64,000 bases of DNA from a virus, in IMG/VR virus record IMGVR_UViG_3300029286_000012. One strand, written 5' to 3'. The translations under genes and the position numbers were made by a program. Positions 12,448 to 60,189 of the stretch are shown piece after piece. Numbering within the stretch: position 1 is the stretch's first letter; every line of letters starts with the position of its first letter. Below the pieces are notes generated by a model. It saw only the letters and a program-made list of their open reading frames with translations. It searched no databases and was not told where the DNA came from.

Positions 12448-12825
12448 ATGAGAGCAAAAGAATTTATAACCGAGGAAAATAATTTGCCTGATAGGATTAC
12501 TAAACCATTACCTGCGACTTGGGTAATACCAGAATTACAGAATCAAAATGCATATTTGCAATATAGATTTGCTGTAGCACTGGCAGGTGCAAAGGCTGCA
12601 CGTAATGGTGATATACCTAAAATGGATAGAGAGTCTGTTTGGGGAGAAAATCAACTAGTTTCCGGATATATGAATCCAGATGTAGCAGATGATATTGATT
12701 TTGCTTTGGGTGAAATGGGTCTTAAGGGTAGTAAAGTATTAGTTACAAGTAAAGATAGCGAAGAAACATCTGATACTGGTATAGATAGCCCAATAAAGGG
12801 ATTTAAGGGTTATAAGAGAAGATGA
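12448..12825 (+). CDS. putative internal head protein, paralogue 1
   Basis: N-terminus MRAKEFITE resembles the T4 capsid-targeting sequence; C-terminus DSEE..DT...SPIKGFKGYKRR shared with next gene. Confidence 0.6.
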   Translation: MRAKEFITEENNLPDRITKPLPATWVIPELQNQNAYLQYRFAVALAGAKAARNGDIPKMDRESVWGENQLVSGYMNPDVADDIDFALGEMGLKGSKVLVTSKDSEETSDTGIDSPIKGFKGYKRR

Positions 12826-13196
12826 GAGCAAATGAATTTATATCCGAAGCTAAGGTTGGTAAAATATCTAAACAACAACAACACGCTACCCGCGGTTTAA
12901 ATATTTTTTCAAAGAAAATAGATAGTTACGATAGACTATACGATTTAAATCGCTTAATGATGGCTGTAGCAAGTAGCGACGGGGTAAACCCAATTGTAAT
13001 GGATGCTGAAAGTTGGGTAGGTAAACACAACACAACACACCCCTACACTAAAGAAGAACAGGCTATGCTTAAATTAGCATATAAAGCTGCCGGTTTAGAA
13101 TACAAAGATTTAAATAATGGTGATTTAGATAGTGAAGAATTACCCGATACAAATACCCAAAGTATTGCAAAACCCTTCAAGGGCTATAAAAAATAA
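12822..13196 (+). CDS. putative internal head protein, paralogue 2
   Basis: MRANEFISE; C-terminus DSEE..DT...SIAKPFKGYKK. Confidence 0.6.
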   Translation: MRANEFISEAKVGKISKQQQHATRGLNIFSKKIDSYDRLYDLNRLMMAVASSDGVNPIVMDAESWVGKHNTTHPYTKEEQAMLKLAYKAAGLEYKDLNNGDLDSEELPDTNTQSIAKPFKGYKK

Positions 13197-23222: not shown

Positions 23223-24248
23223 ATGGATCAGTATCAATTAATCTCACGTTGGATACAAGGTAATATACCAGGTAAAATACTACCATGGCAGATAGATTTA
23301 GACACTACAAATATCTGCAATCAAGCCTGCTATTACTGTAACACCGAACAATTCAGAACAGAGTTGCCGGTGTATCAAACTGTGGACCAATATATCAAGT
23401 TAATTGACAGATTACATACTTGGCGTCAACACGATAGTAATGTAATTGGAACATTAAGTAATGTTATCTTCAGTGGTGGAGGTGAACCTACACTACTTCC
23501 AGGCTATGAAGATTTATTGGAAGATGTGATTGATAAAGGTTATGTTGCCGCTATGAATACAAACGGCACAAAACTACACAAGATATTAACTATTGATACT
23601 GATAAGTTAAAGCGTATGGCTTATGTAGGTCTTGATATTGACAGTGGTAATCCTGACACTTATGAGTTAATACGTAAAAGCAAAATGACAGATAGCCCTT
23701 TTGGTAGAGTCAAAGAGACTGCAAAAGAGTTAGGTAGTAAAGGTGTTCCATTAGATATAAAAGCATTATTAATGCCAGAGAACACAAGCCAATTAGAAAT
23801 CAACAGTATATTTGAATACGCAAGAGATGTTAACGCACGTGCAGTGCATCTACGACCTATGGTATTGAATGGTCATAGCTTTATTATGAATGATGAAGTT
23901 GCTAGTAGGATTAAAACTGCAAGTGAATTTTATGGCATTAAGGCAGACGTATCATTAGGTAGATATGATGCAAGAGAATATAAACGTTGCCATCAGATGT
24001 TTTTGTTCCCTAGTTTTTGTGCTGACGGAAATATATATCTTTGCTGTGAATATAAAGGCCGAGAAGATACTAAATTAGGTTCTTGGATAGATGATGATTT
24101 TAGAGATATATGGTGTAGTGATAAACACAAAGAAATCTATAATAATTTTATAACAAGTTTCTGTAAACCTTGCAGACCTAACTCAACCAATAATAAAATA
24201 CAATCTGCTATGAATGATTATAGTCAGGTCATTAAAGGGTTTATTTAA
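23223..24248 (+). CDS. radical SAM protein with SPASM/twitch domain
   Basis: CNQACYYC, SGGGEP, TNG; C-terminal C...ADGNIYLCC...CKPC. Confidence 0.92.
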   Translation: MDQYQLISRWIQGNIPGKILPWQIDLDTTNICNQACYYCNTEQFRTELPVYQTVDQYIKLIDRLHTWRQHDSNVIGTLSNVIFSGGGEPTLLPGYEDLLEDVIDKGYVAAMNTNGTKLHKILTIDTDKLKRMAYVGLDIDSGNPDTYELIRKSKMTDSPFGRVKETAKELGSKGVPLDIKALLMPENTSQLEINSIFEYARDVNARAVHLRPMVLNGHSFIMNDEVASRIKTASEFYGIKADVSLGRYDAREYKRCHQMFLFPSFCADGNIYLCCEYKGREDTKLGSWIDDDFRDIWCSDKHKEIYNNFITSFCKPCRPNSTNNKIQSAMNDYSQVIKGFI

Positions 24249-25555
24249 AAAGGTTTGTCTTTATCCCGTTGAAATACAGCATAATCTCTTAATCTATGCC
24301 AAAAGCTTTTACGCATATTGTCAGGGTATTGAGAAGTTAATAAATCATAATTATGGTTAGTAATAACCATTGACTTATAGAAAAACTTTTTCTTTTTAGC
24401 ATCATTCCAACTTTGTATATCTTTACAAATTTCTACTATCTTTAATAATCTTTCAAATGGATCTTCAATATCATCATATGTTTCATCCCAAAAATCACTG
24501 AATGTTTTATATCCCAGTTCTTTTAGATATTCTAATGTTTTATATGAACCTACTAGAATAAATGGGTGCCTATGAACCATTGGTTTAAATATCTTTTCTG
24601 TATTAAAAATATCGTTGTTTTGAAAATTGGTTTCAGTAACTATACTAATTAAACTACGTTGGTAATACGGATCTACTGTACCAAATAATTTAGCCATAAC
24701 ATCTGGTTCCACAAACTCATCTATTTTTAAAGGCAATGTGACTTGTATTTTATCTATATCTTCTTCAGTTAATCCTAATTTATTAACTAATCTAGTATCA
24801 ATAGTTCTTCTCCAAATATCATTATCATAATCCTCACCTACAGGAAAATTGGATTTATTATTCATTGTATAATAAGAATCTTCCATTAGATTATTGATAT
24901 TCCATAACACAAATAAATTAACACGATGCCATCGATGAACTCTATTTAGGCATAGAAATGTTTTTTCAATTTTACTATAGTCTACGTTTTTTGGAAGAAT
25001 TTTATTATTAATTTTTTTATTTTCCGTTACTAATCTACTACTCAGCCATTCAAAATATTCTATACAACATATATTGATTCCTCTACTAATTTGTTTTTTA
25101 AAACAATATTCTTTATAGTATTTTTCACCATTTGCACTACCGGTTTGTAATATTACCTTTCTTAAAGGAATATCTTTTAGTTTTAAATACTCATGGATAG
25201 TATCTATAATTTTATCATTTAATATAGATTCATGTCCCAAATCAAGAAGTAAAAATCCATTTCTACCTCTTATTCCATTAAATGTATGAATCGATATATT
25301 AGTAGTAGCTAATAAATCTATTTCTGGACGATTTATCCAATCATCAGGCTCTAATCCTAAACGAATTGGATATACGAAATAATCAAGTTCTTTTAATGAT
25401 AATGACGGTACGCATTCAAACCCATCCAATGATTTAAAAAACTCGTATACTCCATTATCTATTTCTAATTTATCTAATGGTTGATTAAAATTTTGATTAT
25501 TAAGCAATGGATAAGTGGGGGCGAAATAATCGAAGGCTACTAATATTCTATTCAT
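24245..25555 (-). CDS. GT-B/GT10-like putative glycosyltransferase, paralogue B
   Basis: FLCLNR..R.HR; IVTETNF...FNTEKIFKP..HRHPFILVG resembles the GT10 E-N...TEK motif. Confidence 0.5.
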   Translation of the reverse strand: MNRILVAFDYFAPTYPLLNNQNFNQPLDKLEIDNGVYEFFKSLDGFECVPSLSLKELDYFVYPIRLGLEPDDWINRPEIDLLATTNISIHTFNGIRGRNGFLLLDLGHESILNDKIIDTIHEYLKLKDIPLRKVILQTGSANGEKYYKEYCFKKQISRGINICCIEYFEWLSSRLVTENKKINNKILPKNVDYSKIEKTFLCLNRVHRWHRVNLFVLWNINNLMEDSYYTMNNKSNFPVGEDYDNDIWRRTIDTRLVNKLGLTEEDIDKIQVTLPLKIDEFVEPDVMAKLFGTVDPYYQRSLISIVTETNFQNNDIFNTEKIFKPMVHRHPFILVGSYKTLEYLKELGYKTFSDFWDETYDDIEDPFERLLKIVEICKDIQSWNDAKKKKFFYKSMVITNHNYDLLTSQYPDNMRKSFWHRLRDYAVFQRDKDKPF

Positions 25556-26843
25556 GGTTTATATTCTTAAATTCATGCCAAAAGTTTTTACGCATGTTAT
25601 TGGGATAACATTCTGTTAAGAGTTTATGATTATGATTAGTAACAATCATTGATTTATAAAAAAACTTCTTTTTTTCTGTGTCACTCCATTCATATATGGA
25701 TTTACATAATTCAACTATTTTTAATAATCGTTCAGTAGGATCTTCAATATCATCATAACTCTCATCCCAAAACTCACTAAATGTTTTATATCCCATATTT
25801 TTTAAATGTTCTAATGTTTTATATGGGCCTACTAAAATAAATGGGTGTCTATGAATCATTGGTTTAAATATCTTTTCTGTATTAAAAATATCAGACACCT
25901 CAGATCCCTCAAAATTAGTTTCAGTGACCACACTTATTAAACTACTTTGATAATACGCACCAATCGATACAAACAAAGATAATAAATTTACTGGTCTAGG
26001 GTCATCAAGTGTAAGTGGCAACGTTTTTCCTATTTCATCAATGTATTCAGGTGTTGCCCCAACCCTGCACATTAAATTAGTATCTATATAATCATTAAGA
26101 CTATATGTTTTAGTGTCAAGCGTATATCCGGATTTATTAGGCATTGTATAAAAACTATCTTTAATTAAATCATTTAAATTCCATAGTATAAACAGATTTT
26201 TTCTATGTTGCCGCTGTCTGTTATTTAAACATAAGAATGTTTTTTCAATTTTACTATAATCTACATTTTTTGGTAAAGGTATAAATCCTTGATTATTGAT
26301 ACCTACATGGTAGTGTTTACTTGTATGCCATTCAAAGTATTCAATACAAGATATATTCATTGCTTTTTCAAAAATAATTCCTTTTCTGAAACAATAATTT
26401 TTATATATTTCTATTCCATTACAATTTCCGATTTGAAATATAACCTTTCTTAATGGAATATCCTTACTTAAAATATATGAATGCACCTTATCTAATAAAG
26501 AATCTGTCATTGCCGACTCGTTACCTAAATCTAAAAATAAAAATCCATTTCTACTACGTATGCTATTAGCTACATTAATTGACATTGAGGTTGATGATAA
26601 TATATCAATATCAGTATTATACGGCCATTCATATTGACCGAATCCTATTATTATAGGGTAAATAAATAAATCTTTATCTTTTAAAATGGATGATGGTACA
26701 CATTCATATCTTGGTATCTTATTAAAAAACTCACAACTGGTATCGTCAACTATTAACTCTGAAAATGATTTATTAAAGTTTTGATTATTCCTTAGTGGAT
26801 AATTCGGGCCCCAATAATCAAATGCTACTAGTATTCTATTCAT
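25548..26843 (-). CDS. GT-B/GT10-like putative glycosyltransferase, paralogue A
   Basis: same motifs; both paralogues begin MNRILVAFDY; late box CATAAATA at 26850-57 (-). Confidence 0.5.
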   Translation of the reverse strand: MNRILVAFDYWGPNYPLRNNQNFNKSFSELIVDDTSCEFFNKIPRYECVPSSILKDKDLFIYPIIIGFGQYEWPYNTDIDILSSTSMSINVANSIRSRNGFLFLDLGNESAMTDSLLDKVHSYILSKDIPLRKVIFQIGNCNGIEIYKNYCFRKGIIFEKAMNISCIEYFEWHTSKHYHVGINNQGFIPLPKNVDYSKIEKTFLCLNNRQRQHRKNLFILWNLNDLIKDSFYTMPNKSGYTLDTKTYSLNDYIDTNLMCRVGATPEYIDEIGKTLPLTLDDPRPVNLLSLFVSIGAYYQSSLISVVTETNFEGSEVSDIFNTEKIFKPMIHRHPFILVGPYKTLEHLKNMGYKTFSEFWDESYDDIEDPTERLLKIVELCKSIYEWSDTEKKKFFYKSMIVTNHNHKLLTECYPNNMRKNFWHEFKNINHE

Positions 26844-43451: not shown

Positions 43452-44153
43452 ATGAAATTAACTGATTTTGACAAAAACCCAATAGAGAACGCTACTAAAG
43501 CGTTAAAAGAGCATTATGACGTTCCGTTTAATGTTCGTAAAATGTCGTATGCTCAATCAAGAGACATGCTTAATAAAGTTCGCGGCCTAATGACTGAAAC
43601 AAAGAAATCTACAGGTTTCTATGAAAGTCAACAGAATTCTTCATACCTAAAACTTGTGTTTATGGAACAAGCACTGAGTAAGCATTTTGCTGAAATCAGT
43701 CTACGTAAGCCACGTATCGTTGTAGAGAACGAAGAAGTTGAAAAGTCACAGGTTGTTTTGGCAGCGCAAGATTTAGTAGACCAAGTTCAGAAAATGGTTG
43801 AAGAAGTTAGTGATATGTTAGTAAAAGAATTACCGGCATTAACAGACTCAGTTCAATCTGAGATTGGTGTTAACGAAAGTGAAACATTCAATCAACAAGT
43901 TTCTGAAGCATTAACTTCATTACAAGCCGCATTGACACAAAGTCAAGCAACATTGAAAACAGCATTGAATGGCATCACCGGTCAAGGTGGTACTGAAGCG
44001 TTTGATGCGGGTGGTGATATGGCAGGTGGTGAGATGGGTGCTGAACTCGATGTTGAAGAACCACTACCAGGTGGTGGCGAAGAAGAAATGGACATTGGCA
44101 TCGAAGCTCCTGAAGAAGAGCCTCTAGGTGGTGTTGGTCGTCCTAAGAGATAA
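43452..44153 (+). CDS. acidic helical protein, possible prohead core/scaffold component
   Basis: late box upstream; MKLTDF leader; acidic Gly-rich tail ending GRPKR. Confidence 0.5.
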   Translation: MKLTDFDKNPIENATKALKEHYDVPFNVRKMSYAQSRDMLNKVRGLMTETKKSTGFYESQQNSSYLKLVFMEQALSKHFAEISLRKPRIVVENEEVEKSQVVLAAQDLVDQVQKMVEEVSDMLVKELPALTDSVQSEIGVNESETFNQQVSEALTSLQAALTQSQATLKTALNGITGQGGTEAFDAGGDMAGGEMGAELDVEEPLPGGGEEEMDIGIEAPEEEPLGGVGRPKR

Positions 44154-44155
44154 TC

Positions 44156-44485
44156 ATGCGATTATATGAGTTTGCCGGTAGTCCACTATTAATTAGACTT
44201 GTCGCCGCAACTAGTCAGCTTAAAAGTGAGATTGACTCGGGTGAAGTTCATAGTGATTGGACTGTTCCAGAATTGTTGCAATACTACAGAGATAATGATA
44301 TAGTTATTGATAAGTCTGACTTATATAATATGATTAAAAATCCTCCACTAAACAAGAGTATAGCAAACATTCAGGGCGATAATGTTATTTTTAAGGGTAG
44401 TGAGCCTGCTCCGGCAGCACAGCCTGACGAGAATCAAAAAATCGTAGCACAAATGGCTCAAAATGCAATGCAACAACCGCAATGA
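44156..44485 (+). CDS. conserved hypothetical protein
   Basis: MRLYEF leader; coupled in late operon. Confidence 0.7.
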   Translation: MRLYEFAGSPLLIRLVAATSQLKSEIDSGEVHSDWTVPELLQYYRDNDIVIDKSDLYNMIKNPPLNKSIANIQGDNVIFKGSEPAPAAQPDENQKIVAQMAQNAMQQPQ

Positions 44486-45703: not shown

Positions 45704-46513
45704 ATGTCTAAAACTATATACGTAATTGGTGACAGTTTTTCAGCAGGTGCAGAATTAGAAGACCACACATTTAATTCATTTTATAAATTTAATCCCAAAA
45801 ATACTACCGAATATTATAAATGGTTAACAAGTAAAGATTATCAAATTGAGCTAGAATCTAGGAAAAATTATGACAAATATGAGTATGAATTGAAAAGAGC
45901 ATGGCCTGCCAAATTAGCATCACTTGCTAATGTCAATATGATTAATCATTCATTCGGTGGTTCTGGTCCAGCAATGTGGAGAGCTAAAGTTTTTTTAGAT
46001 TTGTTAAATTTTAAAAAAAATAATATTAAAGTAGATACTGCAATAATACAAATTTCAGAATACACTAGAGATTGTATATTTGACACACTACCAAATGGTG
46101 CACGAACCACTTATAATAATATAGGAATACAAAAATTATTAAATGGCTCATCAATTGAAAAGATATATTTAAAACTTAGATTAAAACTAGAATCAGAATA
46201 TGGATATTTTTTTAGATTTTTGTTAGATTTAGCATCTATTAAGACAAGTTTACTAAATTTTGGAATAACGGAAATCGAAATAATTTCTCATAGTTCATCT
46301 ACTCTCAACGATTGGAAAAACTTAGAATTTATAAATAATCCTGATATTCAATCACTATTAAGTTATTTAGGAATTAATTTAGACATACCTATCACCGCTA
46401 TATGGGAATATACTAAAACTAATCCCTTACCACCTATTCTACCTAATTCTCATTATCCAGAATATATACACGATGATTTTGCAAAACTTATGAAATCTAA
46501 ACTAAATTTATAA
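45704..46513 (+). CDS. SGNH/GDSL-like hydrolase or acyltransferase
   Basis: IGDSFSAG block I, AWP..LA, INHSFGGSG, C-terminal SHY. Confidence 0.65.
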   Translation: MSKTIYVIGDSFSAGAELEDHTFNSFYKFNPKNTTEYYKWLTSKDYQIELESRKNYDKYEYELKRAWPAKLASLANVNMINHSFGGSGPAMWRAKVFLDLLNFKKNNIKVDTAIIQISEYTRDCIFDTLPNGARTTYNNIGIQKLLNGSSIEKIYLKLRLKLESEYGYFFRFLLDLASIKTSLLNFGITEIEIISHSSSTLNDWKNLEFINNPDIQSLLSYLGINLDIPITAIWEYTKTNPLPPILPNSHYPEYIHDDFAKLMKSKLNL

Positions 46514-56063: not shown

Positions 56064-57230
56064 ATGGCAACACGTAAGCGTAATACAGAGGACCATAGTC
56101 TAGTTAAAGCATTAAATCCACGTGATGTGGATGTACAACATTATGGAGATGAGCCGTTATTTGTACTACAACCGGATGAGGATAAACGCAGGGTTGCATT
56201 GATGCGTAGTTTTACTTGGTATCATCGTTTTTATGGGAAAAAAGATGCAAAAGAATTGCTTTCCCAATATTTAGAATTTCATAAACGTACCGATGATGCT
56301 AAAACAATGCGTAGGATTCACGAAAATGAATTTCTATTGACACTATGCTGGTTAGCACGTATGCAGTTACGTGGGCTAGAACTATCTGAACACGAGGAAC
56401 TGACACTTGGAAACGAAATCAATCGTTTGTTAAAGTTAGTACACAAACCAGAAGAAGAAAAAGTTGAAGTTGAAGCACCTGCTCGACCCAACATTCAAGA
56501 CATATTAAAAGAAAAAGCACGTGATGCCGCAGGTGAGCTTGAGGGATTGTTTGATGAATTCATCACATCCGGTGCACCTACAAAACATTCACTACGTCCA
56601 ATGGATGAAGTTGCTAAAAAGAATGTGATGCCACAACATATCAGTATTTTAACTGAAGTATGGAAAAAGAAATTGAATGAATTTGAAGAGGTAATTAAAG
56701 GAACTGATAGTCAATTGATTCAAGGTTACAATCATCTCAGTAAAATTCAATTAAAAAACATTGTTAAGTTTATTGAATTAGTTATCAATGACTTGAATAG
56801 TTATATCAGTGTTAAGAAGGCTGCAAAAGCTCCTAGGGCACGTAAAGCAGTACCTGTTGAGAAAATTGTATCTAAATTAAAGTATTTGAAAACATTTAAA
56901 GATACTGCAAATAAACTTGATTTAGTCAGTATTAGTCCTATCAAACTTCACGGTGCAAGTGAAGCGTGGGTATATGATAGTGCAAAACGCAAACTGCATC
57001 ACTATATCGCAGATGATTATAGCAAAGCATTTACGGTTAAAGGTAATACATTGCTAGGATTTGATACAGCAAAAAGTGAAGTTAAAACACTACGTAAACC
57101 TGCTGAACAATTAAAAGAAATTATGGGAAGTAAGCCGGCAGCTCGTAAATACTTTAACGACATTAAAGCAGTAGTTACTGCATCTAATGGCCGCTTTAAT
57201 GAGAATATGATTATACTAAAAGCGTTCTAA
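56064..57230 (+). CDS. conserved early hypothetical protein
   Basis: AGGAG SD; VKGNTLLGFD, KTLRKP, NGRFNE motifs. Confidence 0.75.
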   Translation: MATRKRNTEDHSLVKALNPRDVDVQHYGDEPLFVLQPDEDKRRVALMRSFTWYHRFYGKKDAKELLSQYLEFHKRTDDAKTMRRIHENEFLLTLCWLARMQLRGLELSEHEELTLGNEINRLLKLVHKPEEEKVEVEAPARPNIQDILKEKARDAAGELEGLFDEFITSGAPTKHSLRPMDEVAKKNVMPQHISILTEVWKKKLNEFEEVIKGTDSQLIQGYNHLSKIQLKNIVKFIELVINDLNSYISVKKAAKAPRARKAVPVEKIVSKLKYLKTFKDTANKLDLVSISPIKLHGASEAWVYDSAKRKLHHYIADDYSKAFTVKGNTLLGFDTAKSEVKTLRKPAEQLKEIMGSKPAARKYFNDIKAVVTASNGRFNENMIILKAF

Positions 57231-57250
57231 AACAGCGATATCTAAGGATC

Positions 57251-57287
57251 ATTAGTTTCCTGATAAATACAACATCAGGAAACTAAT
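57251..57287 (+). promoter_or_regulatory. late promoter embedded in an SD-sequestering hairpin
   Basis: perfect 14-bp inverted repeat ATTAGTTTCCTGAT/ATCAGGAAACTAAT overlapping GATAAATA. Confidence 0.85.
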
Positions 57288-58085
57288 ATGACTATATCTG
57301 CAACAGCAAACATTCTTTCTACACCAACTGGTTTAACACTAGATGAGTTGAAACAAGCATTATTCAGTAATCTACGTTATAGATTGGGTGATGGCATTAT
57401 TGACCTTGAGTTAGATCCTCAACATTACGAAGCGGCATACAACTACGCAATAAAAGTATATCGTCAACGAGCGCAAAATGCTACGGCAGAGTCATACACA
57501 CTAATGACAGTTGTAAAAAACGTGGACACTTACACATTGCCACAAGAGTTTATCAATGTTCGTTGTATCTATCGTAGAACAGTTGGATTAGAGACTGGAC
57601 CGGGAGCAAGCAGTTTTGATCCATTCAGTTCAGCTATATTAAACACTTATCTATTAAACTATAACTATGCAGGTGGTATGGCAACATATGACTTTTATGC
57701 TGGTTATGTAGAACTAGCCGCACGTATGTTTGGTGGATATGTAATCTATACATTCGATCCAGTTACAAAAGTAATACGTATTGTTCGTGATCCAAAAGGT
57801 AGTGGTGAGCGTGTTCTTATTTGGGCTGACGTACAAAGACCAGAAGAAGTGTTACTACAAGATCCGGGTGCTGGTGTATGGATTGGTGACTTCATTTTAG
57901 CTAACTTAAAACTAATCATTGGTGAGGCACGTGAGAAGTTTGGTACTATCGCAGGTCCAGGCGGCGGCACAACATTAAACGGTACAGCTATGAAAGCTGA
58001 AGGCAAAGCCGCAATGGAACAACTATACGATGAACTAAAACGTTATGTAGATTACAGTCAGCCATTGACTTGGGTACAAGGTTAA
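57288..58085 (+). CDS. neck protein / head-tail adaptor (T4 gp13-like)
   Basis: RLG..IIDLEL, GEAREKF..IAGP.GGTTLNG. Confidence 0.85.
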   Translation: MTISATANILSTPTGLTLDELKQALFSNLRYRLGDGIIDLELDPQHYEAAYNYAIKVYRQRAQNATAESYTLMTVVKNVDTYTLPQEFINVRCIYRRTVGLETGPGASSFDPFSSAILNTYLLNYNYAGGMATYDFYAGYVELAARMFGGYVIYTFDPVTKVIRIVRDPKGSGERVLIWADVQRPEEVLLQDPGAGVWIGDFILANLKLIIGEAREKFGTIAGPGGGTTLNGTAMKAEGKAAMEQLYDELKRYVDYSQPLTWVQG

Positions 58086-58103: not shown

Positions 58104-58661
58104 ATGATGCGTGAATTTATTACTTTACTTGAAGATAAGAGTAAACCCCAAGACATAGAAATCATTCCACTAAACTTTACTGAAGGTGAACTTGCACCTG
58201 TACTTAGTAAAGATACAATAGAACTTCACTATGATAAATTAGCCAATGGTTATGCTGAACGTTATAATAAAGGCGAGGGTGATAAAGATTTTAACTATGC
58301 AGGTGCATTCTTACATAATACATTGTTTCCTCAGTTCCGCGAAGTTAGAAATAAAAACAATCCAAATGGCCCTATTATGGGATTTATCAACAAACACTAC
58401 GGTTCATATGATAATATGAAAGAACAGTTTGAAACTGAATTTATGAAGTTAGAAGGATCTGGTTGGCTATACCTAGCATATGATGGTAAGATTAAAACAA
58501 TTAAAAACCATGAAGTACGCAATGATATATTGTTATTAGTTGATAGGTGGGAACATGCTTGGATACTAGATTATGGTAGTGATAAGAAAAAGTATTTGAA
58601 AGAACAATGGAAGATTATCAATTGGAACGTAATCAATACTCGTTGGGGTAAGAGTCTATGA
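58104..58661 (+). CDS. sod: Fe/Mn superoxide dismutase
   Basis: L.P.LS..TIELHY.K, FLH..LF, GSGW, DRWEHAW.LDY, IINW. Confidence 0.88.
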   Translation: MMREFITLLEDKSKPQDIEIIPLNFTEGELAPVLSKDTIELHYDKLANGYAERYNKGEGDKDFNYAGAFLHNTLFPQFREVRNKNNPNGPIMGFINKHYGSYDNMKEQFETEFMKLEGSGWLYLAYDGKIKTIKNHEVRNDILLLVDRWEHAWILDYGSDKKKYLKEQWKIINWNVINTRWGKSL

Positions 58662-59167
58662 GAGCCAATGAGTTTATTGTAGAAGGTGTGGCGGAAGGCT
58701 CAGAACAAAAATATCTATGGCATGGTTCAAGACAAAAGATTCCTATGTTAGAACCACGCCAATCAGTTGATACAGGTGGTGCCGCAGGTAGCAATCAAAA
58801 TGCTATCTATGCTACCAGTGATCCTAAAGTTGCTATCGCAGTTGGTGGGTTAACTACTCCCGATTCAGATACCGCAATGTTTCCTAACGATCCACAGATG
58901 GTTTTGTTTAGTGGCAAGATTAGAAAAGGAGAAAATGTGTATCTACACAAACTACCTTTTTATAGTCTAGATGGTAAACCGCAGTTTGTTCAGGGTGCCC
59001 ATGACAGGGAATTTTATTCAATACCTGGAGTAAAAGGTATCAAGCCTACAGAAATAAAAGCAGTTCCGGTAGACAAATATCTTAATCTAATCAGGAAGGC
59101 AACTCCTGCTGATTTGGAATTGCGTAAAAAGAATATGAAAGAGCAAGGTGTGGCGGAAGATAATTAA
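58658..59167 (+). CDS. putative ADP-ribosyltransferase-fold protein with capsid-targeting-like leader
   Basis: MRANEFIVE leader; YLWHGS ... IYATSD ... REFY (H-Y-E pattern); flanked by GVAE. Confidence 0.5.
   Translation: MRANEFIVEGVAEGSEQKYLWHGSRQKIPMLEPRQSVDTGGAAGSNQNAIYATSDPKVAIAVGGLTTPDSDTAMFPNDPQMVLFSGKIRKGENVYLHKLPFYSLDGKPQFVQGAHDREFYSIPGVKGIKPTEIKAVPVDKYLNLIRKATPADLELRKKNMKEQGVAEDN
58683..59159 (+). repeat. 15-bp direct repeat AAGGTGTGGCGGAAG (58683-97, 59145-59)
   Basis: identical GC-rich copies, same reading frame, bounding the domain. Confidence 0.9.
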
Positions 59168-59176
59168 CCTAAACAG

Positions 59177-59219
59177 TTTACTTTATAACTCTCCTGTAGT
59201 ACAATATGTATTACAGGAG
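59177..59219 (+). promoter_or_regulatory. sigma70-type promoter embedded in an SD-sequestering hairpin
   Basis: TTTACT-17-TACAAT; 13-bp stem 59191-203/59207-219 includes AGGAG. Confidence 0.7.
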
Positions 59220-59226
59220 TTACCAT

Positions 59227-59859
59227 ATGATTATTGGAGTTACAGGATTAATTGGGTCAGGTAAAGATACAATTGCTGACTATCTTTGCACATTTCACGG
59301 GTTTAAGCGTGTTAGTTTTGCGGCTAGTTTAAAAGACGCAGTAGCAAGTGTCTTTGGTTGGAATAGAGAATACTTAGAAGGTTCAACTAAAACTAGTCGT
59401 GCTTGGCGTGAGCAACGTGATGAATGGTGGAGTAATCGTTTAGGTATGGAAATCACCCCACGATGGGTATTACAATATTGGGGAACAGAAGTCTGTCGTA
59501 ATAACTTTCATACTGATATCTGGGTGGCCAGCGTAGAAAACAAACTACGTCAGACTAATGATAACATTGTTATTACTGATTGTAGATTTGTCAATGAAGT
59601 TAAATCTATCAAAAGTGTCGGTGGCACTACTATGCGTGTGAGCAGGGGTGAACGCCCAATTTGGTATAGTGCCGCAGTTGATTATAACAATGAACCTGAA
59701 GGTAGCGAACAAAAACTAAAAGCTATGGTAGAGTTAGGTAACTATGCAGTTCACGCTAGTGAGTATAGTAGCATTGGTTTATTGTATGACTATTACATTG
59801 ATAACAATAGTACCATTGATGAGTTACACAAGCAAGTGAACTCAGTGGTCAACTTCTAA
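59227..59859 (+). CDS. deoxynucleoside monophosphate kinase (T4 gp1-like)
   Basis: GLIGSGKDT, FAASLK, TPRWVLQ.WGTE, ITDCRF.NE, HASE. Confidence 0.92.
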   Translation: MIIGVTGLIGSGKDTIADYLCTFHGFKRVSFAASLKDAVASVFGWNREYLEGSTKTSRAWREQRDEWWSNRLGMEITPRWVLQYWGTEVCRNNFHTDIWVASVENKLRQTNDNIVITDCRFVNEVKSIKSVGGTTMRVSRGERPIWYSAAVDYNNEPEGSEQKLKAMVELGNYAVHASEYSSIGLLYDYYIDNNSTIDELHKQVNSVVNF

Positions 59860-60189
59860 GTCACCTCGACGCCAAGTTATTTCTTTACGCTTAACCACCT
59901 CAATACAACATAAGCAGACCGTTCGTAAATTAGTAAGAGCAATATTCTCTAAACTACCATCAATATGATATACTGTCATTTGAGTTGGGAACAAACTTTT
60001 AAAGCCACATAAGTCACACGTGGCTTTTTTCTTATAGCCACTTTTAGTCCAGTTTGCTTTTCTAGGCTTTAACTTCTTTTTCTTACGACCGCACTCATCG
60101 CACCCACTGCGATAGTGTGTAATACCCTCACGGATGTAATTCACTGCACAGTGATTTTTTCCGCAACTCTTACATATAGGTCTTAGCAT
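59842..60189 (-). CDS. zinc-finger/HNH-like protein
   Basis: CxxC pairs, HIDG, NLRTVCLCC; late box 60194-201 (-). Confidence 0.7.
   Translation of the reverse strand: MLRPICKSCGKNHCAVNYIREGITHYRSGCDECGRKKKKLKPRKANWTKSGYKKKATCDLCGFKSLFPTQMTVYHIDGSLENIALTNLRTVCLCCIEVVKRKEITWRRGDLEVDH

Follow-up and report, generated by a model that had tools for sequence, protein, structure and literature searches.

In phage T4, IPI, IPII and IPIII, which are internal proteins, and the ADP-ribosyltransferase (ART) Alt have a short leader ending in (L/I)-x-E followed by diverse, non-essential cargo, each encoded by a separate gene with its own leader. The T4 capsid targeting sequence (CTS) is MKTYQEFIAE (PMC8442874), in which residues 4 and 7 serve targeting and residues 8 and 10 serve processing by gp21; Alt is trimmed at both ends by gp21 and is ejected into the host (PMC9026906). 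Here we describe a related arrangement in a 64,000-nucleotide stretch of viral DNA (IMG/VR record IMGVR_UViG_3300029286_000012; hereafter the window), in which a gene of 169 amino acids (aa) encodes a T4-like leader and one module, read as an ART fold, enclosed by two identical 15-bp repeats, AAGGTGTGGCGGAAG, that are both translated as Gly-Val-Ala-Glu (GVAE) and are referred to below as joints. The background is T4-type and includes, in relatives of the window, a protease of the gp21 family, but unlike the T4 cargo several modules can follow one leader and are connected by a uniform linker that is fixed in its DNA. We consider it probable, at roughly 0.6, that this is a cargo-polyprotein locus carrying ART-type cargo in which the joint has a dual role as exchange point and protease site.

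Integron gene cassettes resemble this locus in outcome, being a variable and exchangeable array behind a fixed 5′ element at a fixed locus, but their units are promoterless genes, whereas here they are protein modules within one open reading frame (ORF). The 'recer' interdomain sequences of de Chateau and Bjorck, reportedly found in Gram-positive surface proteins (protein PAB and protein G), are said to be short, nucleotide-conserved stretches at domain borders that permit in-frame shuffling without introns; they differ from the joint in belonging, by these accounts, to bacterial surface proteins with far fewer modules and with no protease-site reading. What marks a 'recer', conserved short DNA at module borders with homology breaking exactly there, is found here as well. 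The polyvalent proteins of phages and conjugative elements, reportedly described by Iyer, Aravind and co-workers in 2017, are likewise said to be multi-domain, with ART, ParB-like, acetyltransferase and other conflict-related domains, and are presumed to reach the host together with the DNA; we know of no uniform DNA-conserved linker and no T4-type leader in them. PeSL cassettes are repeats in the hyperplastic regions of T4-type genomes and are sites of modular insertion, deletion and replacement, where two direct repeats flank a unit that they could loop out (Arbiol et al. 2010, PMC2839356). As units of promoter plus terminator, PeSLs lie between genes and move these as a whole, whereas the joint is translated, spans 15–20 nt inside an ORF, and moves protein modules. 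Text searches of the literature with the linker strings GVAEG and QGVAE returned no description of such a joint but unrelated papers, mostly on alpha-synuclein. New here is the combination of one leader, many modules and one translated, base-fixed joint with exchange, of which the window provides the single-module form with both joints present and a clean syntenic series.

An earlier note on this sequence had described identical 15-mers flanking the domain and both encoding GVAE, and this holds: the copies at 58683–58697 and 59145–59159 are 462 bp apart, hence in the same frame, and enclose a single module, the translation running from the leader MRANEFIVE through GVAE and G into the module (~149 aa) and from there through Q, GVAE, D and N to the stop. 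The window contains no further copy of AAGGTGTGGCGGAAG, even with two mismatches allowed. The expected number of such repeat copies is 0.06, and two copies were reached in 1 of 100 shuffles; one repeated 15-mer in 64 kb is unremarkable alone, and the weight of this one comes from its frame, position and codon choice. The GTG and GCG codons, noted earlier as unusual for this AT-rich genome, do prove scarce (9.7% of Val and 7.0% of Ala codons in the window ORFs), and with this codon usage the probability of GGT GTG GCG GAA, given GVAE, is 0.003 per site.

Comparison with other loci shows that whole modules have been exchanged exactly at the joint. The module DNA is 98.5% identical to that of contig L121 and 97.5–97.9% identical to those of L122 and L123, and these alignments begin at 58683 and end at 59158–59160, that is, at the two 15-mers, with unrelated sequences on either side; homology that breaks exactly at the repeats supports the earlier proposal that they are a site of in-frame domain swapping. 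In L121 the ART module comes third among the units of a 604-aa ORF (L121:1834–3645), after an MRANEF leader and units resembling a HAD-like phosphatase and a deoxycytidine monophosphate (dCMP)/cytidine deaminase, and in L122 and L123 it lies within a 360-aa ORF. ParB-like and GNAT modules adjoin it in other relatives. A profile search of 1.84 billion representatives places the module at residue positions ranging from 9 to 1228 in proteins of 160–1622 aa.

The same conclusion is drawn from eight syntenic loci, the window included, with the order adaptor, polyprotein, deoxynucleoside monophosphate (dNMP) kinase, HNH-like gene and sheath, and with amino acid identities of 78–99% for the adaptor and 92–94% for the kinase. 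As the earlier note had anticipated for orthologous loci, they differ by whole cassettes, and no fewer than six distinct sets of modules lie between a common leader and a common GVAEDN-stop end. Using L for the leader, X and Z for unnamed modules and V for an uncharacterised stretch past the last joint, these are L-[ART]-stub in the window, L-[X]-[ART]-decayed stub in L129, L-[X]-[ParB-like]-[ART]-[V] in L132, L-[ParB-like]-stub in L170, L-[X]-[DUF6886 module]-stub in L171, ...[ParB-like]-[Z]-stub in L069, ...[ParB-like]-stub in L172, and ...[ParB-like]-[ART]... in L155. GVAEDN-stop, followed by the same hairpin and kinase start, is common to the window, L069, L170, L171 and L172, and module homology ends on the right at joint 2, where homology to the syntenic loci with other modules begins. 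Relative to L129, the module DNA is 80% identical compared with 84–99% for the flanks, a pattern that fits module replacement rather than vertical descent. In a set of 170 non-redundant polyprotein ORFs, homology breaks off abruptly no more than 6 aa from GVAE in 31% of cases, versus 5% for random positions; a looser test, in which many ends of high-scoring segment pairs are not true breakpoints, gives 13% versus 3% within 3 aa.

Chimeric assembly at the repeat was considered and rejected, as 15–20 nt is shorter than assembler k-mer sizes. Identical architectures also recur in independent samples (L122/L123; L146/L147/L148; L141/L142), which makes assembly artefacts unlikely.

The joint is not particular to this locus. 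The exact 15-mer is present in more than 120 IMG/VR contigs among the matches listed by a scan in which loci are thus picked by the 15-mer itself. A few high-GC matches look like chance, and the others are read in the GVAE frame within long ORFs, the largest near 1,500 aa, commonly with several joints per ORF at spacings of 50–400 aa and mostly in the form (K/E)-Q-GVAE-(G/E/A/D). Many in-frame copies bounding unrelated domains, named beforehand as a sign in favour of the proposal, are thus found: the fetched IMG/VR loci hold 229 distinct sites with the exact 12-mer, and 225 of these lie in the GVAE frame of ORFs of at least 80 codons; one left flank is seen with different right flanks, and vice versa. 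These data also bear on whether the two 15-mers in the window could have arisen by chance or as the target-site duplication of an inserted mobile element. One exact 15-mer pair in 64 kb is in itself nothing rare, but the 15-mer bounds hundreds of unrelated modules in frame on more than 100 viral contigs, and a target-site duplication would vary from site to site; with the recurrence of the joint, the exchange at it and the syntenic series, we reject this explanation and give it a negligible probability.

Because loci picked with the 15-mer cannot test conservation of its DNA, 38 loci were fetched instead through peptide patterns inside the module, and these are unbiased for the joint. In this set, 47 of 67 distinct GVAE sites read GGTGTGGCGGAA (GGT GTG GCG GAA), compared with 0.36% expected from the codon usage of the same loci, where GTG makes up 16% of Val and GCG 6.5% of Ala codons, and GCG is never used at conserved Ala positions within the module. 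Synonymous variation at the joint is thus suppressed, as had been foreseen. Two codons before the joint Gly, G-ending codons prevail (Lys AAG 26:3, Glu GAG 9:1, Gln CAG 7:2; backgrounds 20–30%), whereas in the codon right before the Gly the preference is reversed (Gln CAA 47:0, Lys AAA 5:0), and at 63 of the 67 sites the joint Glu is followed by G, A, E, D or V, residues whose codons all start in G. Since the bias is present even where the amino acid varies, it is the bases that are conserved and not only the peptide: a string of approximately G-NAA-GGT-GTG-GCG-GAA-G, about 15–20 nt, is kept beyond what the peptide alone accounts for. The repeat is neither confined to the window, nor free in its codons, nor mismatched to module boundaries; none of these outcomes, which the earlier note had listed as counting against its proposal, has occurred.

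The identity of the joint DNA could nonetheless be passive, the joint being a peptide linker or protease site only, with identity arising from co-copying of linkers, exchange or gene conversion and with no selected role in recombination. Modules do travel with their own 3′ joint, so joints are copied repeatedly, and terminal joints that no longer link modules decay (e.g. GVVEST in L129); GVGGR-stop ends in several homologues resemble a 1-base shift, although this is a reading at the protein level only. We regard a passive origin as unlikely, however, as the rare codons are kept across modules that are only 50–60% identical, in which neutral joint bases would be eroded by mutation pressure, and as bases are held despite amino acid change both before the CAA codon and after GAA. 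A role for the motif on the messenger RNA or ribosome, such as a pause between modules that aids folding, with module exchange as a side effect, is more doubtful still. The AGGTG segment (AGGUG can pair with the 3′ end of 16S rRNA) together with the two rare codons GUG and GCG would suit a pause, as would the constant position of the motif between folded units, but the joint Gly and Glu use the commonest codons (GGT, GAA) such that there is no general rare-codon patch, no start codon follows the motif, and homology breaks located exactly at the motif are left unexplained.

We also considered whether the fixed 15–20 nt is the recognition site of a dedicated nuclease or recombinase, which would make this a cassette system in the true integron sense. 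Base-level conservation that reaches past the needs of the peptide agrees with such a site, and an HNH-like gene about 700 bp downstream on the other strand is conserved (70–96% aa identity) in six of the seven other syntenic loci, the exception being L155, which ends before the region. Yet this gene is weakly supported as an HNH and does not adjoin the polyprotein genes of the relatives G001 and G002, which are located elsewhere in those genomes. No tyrosine recombinase (PF00589) was found in two near-complete (98–99%) relatives, while 14 of 14 control genomes score; the window ORFs were not all scanned. Nor is there an attC-type inverted repeat, as the 15-mer is neither palindromic nor self-complementary and forms no hairpin, and there is no conserved flanking structure because the flanks differ at every joint. 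Recognition by a dedicated enzyme is therefore quite improbable, and exchange presumably occurs by general recombination. The 'integron-like' label given earlier stands as an analogy of outcome, and fails for an integrase, in the two near-complete relatives, and for a hairpin at the joint.

The protein-level role proposed for the joint starts from the leader, which has EFI-x-E in common with the T4 CTS. Of the GVAE ORFs, 33% bear a CTS-like leader, versus 8% of the remaining ORFs in these loci (odds ratio 5.8, p = 3e-12). The 12-mer has 84 variants with one mismatch, of which 51 are silent and 33 change the peptide; the latter affect the Glu in only 2 of 33 cases, replace Val by Met or Leu in 6 of 7, and vary the Ala and Gly freely. 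Judged by their translations, linker variants thus follow an (L/I/V)-x-E rule (the pattern [LIVM]-x-E). A Peptidase_S77 gene, i.e. a T4 gp21-type protease, is present in the module-carrying relatives G001, G002 and G004, at 85–89 bits against a cut-off of 27, and thereby in the two near-complete relatives and a third. From the T4-like leader, the variants and the protease in near-complete relatives, we infer that the head protease would cut at GVAE and that the products would be packaged in the head and injected.

Other window proteins have similar N-termini. The adjacent genes at 12448–12825 and 12822–13196 encode proteins of 125 and 124 aa starting MRAKEFITE and MRANEFISE, which are weakly paralogous (35% over 66 aa), resemble each other in their basic C-termini and match no family; they are candidate internal head proteins without GVAE joints. 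A 109-aa ORF at 44156–44485, adjoining a homologue of a virion structural protein (43452–44153), starts with the looser leader-like MRLYEFAG. The Fe/Mn superoxide dismutase (SOD) encoded just upstream of the ART-fold gene has an extra N-terminal stretch, MMREFITLLE, that is leader-like and ends L-L-E; its homologues in G003 and G001 also have N-terminal extensions, ending L-V-E and L-L-E, and in L146–L148 an SOD gene is again immediately 5′ of a polyprotein containing the ART module. The SOD may be a virion-borne enzyme. None of these four leader-bearing proteins was found as a GVAE-bounded module in the fetched polyproteins.

The identity of the module comes from structure prediction. It has no Pfam match at E up to 1 and no PHROGs match. 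An AlphaFold (AF2) model built with 31 homologues has a mean predicted local distance difference test score of 81, with disordered termini (residues 1–15 and 164–169), and in a search of 48,161 PDB representatives the ART superfamily accounts for most of the top 50 structural matches. The best is KptA (Z 8.1, root-mean-square deviation 2.5 over 81 residues), with pertussis toxin S1 (Z 6.5), diphtheria toxin (6.5) and Arr (6.0) further down, and with ParT, DarT, RES and Rhs toxins and PARPs also among the matches. Residues W21, H22, G23 and S24, Y51, A52 and T53, and E118 are invariant or nearly so in 18–31 homologues; of these, H22, Y51 and E118 are invariant, and each falls on a predicted strand (19–24, 51–53 and 118–121, respectively; model positions). 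The H-G-S / Y-A-T / E pattern pointed out in the earlier note is thus real and conserved, and its ART-like assignment is supported at the level of the predicted fold. We take the module to be a domain with an ART fold of the H-Y-E type, from a family not described so far; the ART of Alt is of the R-S-E type. It also appears to be a distant relative of Pfam DUF6886 (PF21820; gathering cut-off 27 bits). The window protein itself has no match to DUF6886, nine of ten distant stand-alone homologues score 15–22 bits, all below threshold, and the module that replaces it in L171 scores 26.5 bits, near threshold; an hhalign comparison of the module family with the L171 module is weak (E 0.018) with collinear motifs. 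By analogy with T4 Alt, the module is most likely an NAD+-using enzyme that would be borne in the capsid and enter the host with the DNA.

We therefore favour a reading in which giant T4-like phages would have a 'cargo polyprotein' locus, seen here in its shortest form, where an N-terminal leader that targets the head in the style of T4 precedes one or more modules, each bounded by (K/E)-Q-G-V-A-E-(G). As DNA, the fixed 15–20 nt would act as an in-frame identity patch, at which homologous or microhomology recombination, perhaps by the phage's own UvsX-type machinery, would move, add, delete or replace whole modules with the reading frame intact. As protein, V-A-E would be an (L/I/V)-x-E site for a gp21-family prohead protease that would separate leader and modules inside the head, and the H-Y-E-type module would travel in the capsid and enter the host with the DNA.

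Several observations weigh against this reading. A patch of 15–20 nt is short for efficient homologous recombination, and in the two near-complete relatives the exact 15-mer is found in one gene only, in four and two copies. Nucleotide-metabolism enzymes in some polyproteins fit poorly with 'injected effectors'. For the fold, a PDB sequence search with the family profile returned nothing at E up to 10, each ART match is middling and none strong, and Foldseek against the PDB yields Arr and Tpt1 only as weak matches (best E 0.08), which leaves the wide structural search as the basis of the fold call. The prohead protease gene does not lie within the 64-kb window, which ends in the sheath gene, and the G001 capsid protein lacks GVAE, having only I-L-E and L-A-E as candidate sites; the protease thus does not need the exact peptide and cannot explain the uniformity of the linker. 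Cutting at joint 2 would take off just two residues; this and the lack of GVAE in the capsid protein suggest that joint 2 is retained as the DNA border of the module.

A stronger claim, to which we give somewhat less than even odds, is that the ~20 nt are themselves selected, as a frame-keeping crossover and head-protease site in one, yielding an integrase-less integron at the protein level in which a leader is followed by re-assortable injected enzymes from a pool shared across lineages. If correct, the proposed system would explain how large lytic phages diversify the proteins injected ahead of their DNA behind a single packaging tag, and would be a clean natural case of base-level constraint in coding sequence tied to evolvability. 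The 15-mer would be a searchable signature by which hundreds of metagenomic proteins without a known function could be picked out as candidates for injection, the joint would offer a design rule taken from nature by which a single gene could load several foreign proteins into T4-type capsids, and the predicted DUF6886-related ART-fold family would be a new candidate host-takeover or counter-defence enzyme.

Table 1. Features of the ART-fold gene and its immediate surroundings (coordinates are those of the window).
Feature	Coordinates	Strand	Remarks
Head-tail adaptor gene	57288..58085	+	conserved left flank of the locus
Fe/Mn superoxide dismutase (SOD) gene	58104..58661	+	between neck adaptor gene and leader
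Whole gene	58658..59167	+	169 aa; leader, joint, ART-fold module (predicted), joint, 2-aa stub, stop
Leader MRANEFIVE	58658..58684	+	ends I-V-E, a gp21-type (L/I)-x-E site
Joint 1, AAGGTGTGGCGGAAG	58683..58697	+	GVAE codons 58685–58696; left limit of module DNA homology elsewhere
ART-fold module (predicted)	58698..59144	+	residues about 14–163; H22-G-S, Y51-A-T, E118
Joint 2, AAGGTGTGGCGGAAG again	59145..59159	+	GVAE codons 59147–59158
Terminal stub Asp-Asn-stop	59159..59167	+	same GVAEDN-stop end in four other contigs
Hairpin, 8-bp stems CTCCTGTA / TACAGGAG	59191..59219	+	between ART gene and kinase start at 59227
dNMP kinase gene	59227..59859	+	conserved right flank of the locus

The ATG of the gene overlaps the SOD stop codon (ATGA), and the SOD gene is not at the corresponding place in the syntenic L129, L132, L170 and L171; a search of IMG/VR for the junction of SOD gene and leader found no match. 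L129 in turn has a 139-aa gene (L129:1195–1614) between a phrog_11903 homologue and the adaptor that is without counterpart in the window (57230–57288); with the SOD gene, this marks the neck region, on sequence comparison, as an apparent hot spot of gene gain and loss. The hairpin downstream of the ART-fold gene spans the dNMP kinase gene's GGAG ribosome-binding site, is kept in all the syntenic loci regardless of the preceding module, and may act either as a terminator or in the control of translation. The HNH-like ORF (59842–60189, minus strand; HNH_3 E = 0.067) is Cys-rich, encodes 115 aa and lies between the kinase and sheath genes.

The gene content of the window points to an uncultured T4-like myovirus, with replication and packaging genes (large terminase, gp32-like single-stranded DNA-binding protein, UvsX, primase, and DnaB-like and UvsW-like helicases) and structural genes (neck and sheath-stabiliser proteins and a 1193-aa sheath). 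The locus is unmatched by any cultured phage in INPHARED, where only the dNMP kinase gene finds relatives, at 65–73% DNA identity, in Asteriusvirus-like jumbo phages; relatives of the module are on IMG/VR contigs that reach 354 kb. The T4 late-promoter octamer TATAAATA was sought near the gene, and the sole copy in the whole window is far off, at 46330. With 12.2 ± 3.4 copies expected, the octamer is strongly avoided, and late promoters of this phage therefore probably use another motif. Elsewhere in the window, tandem paralogues of 436 and 431 aa that both start MNRILVAFDY (24245–25555 and 25548–26843) are encoded on the minus strand amid an otherwise plus-strand region.

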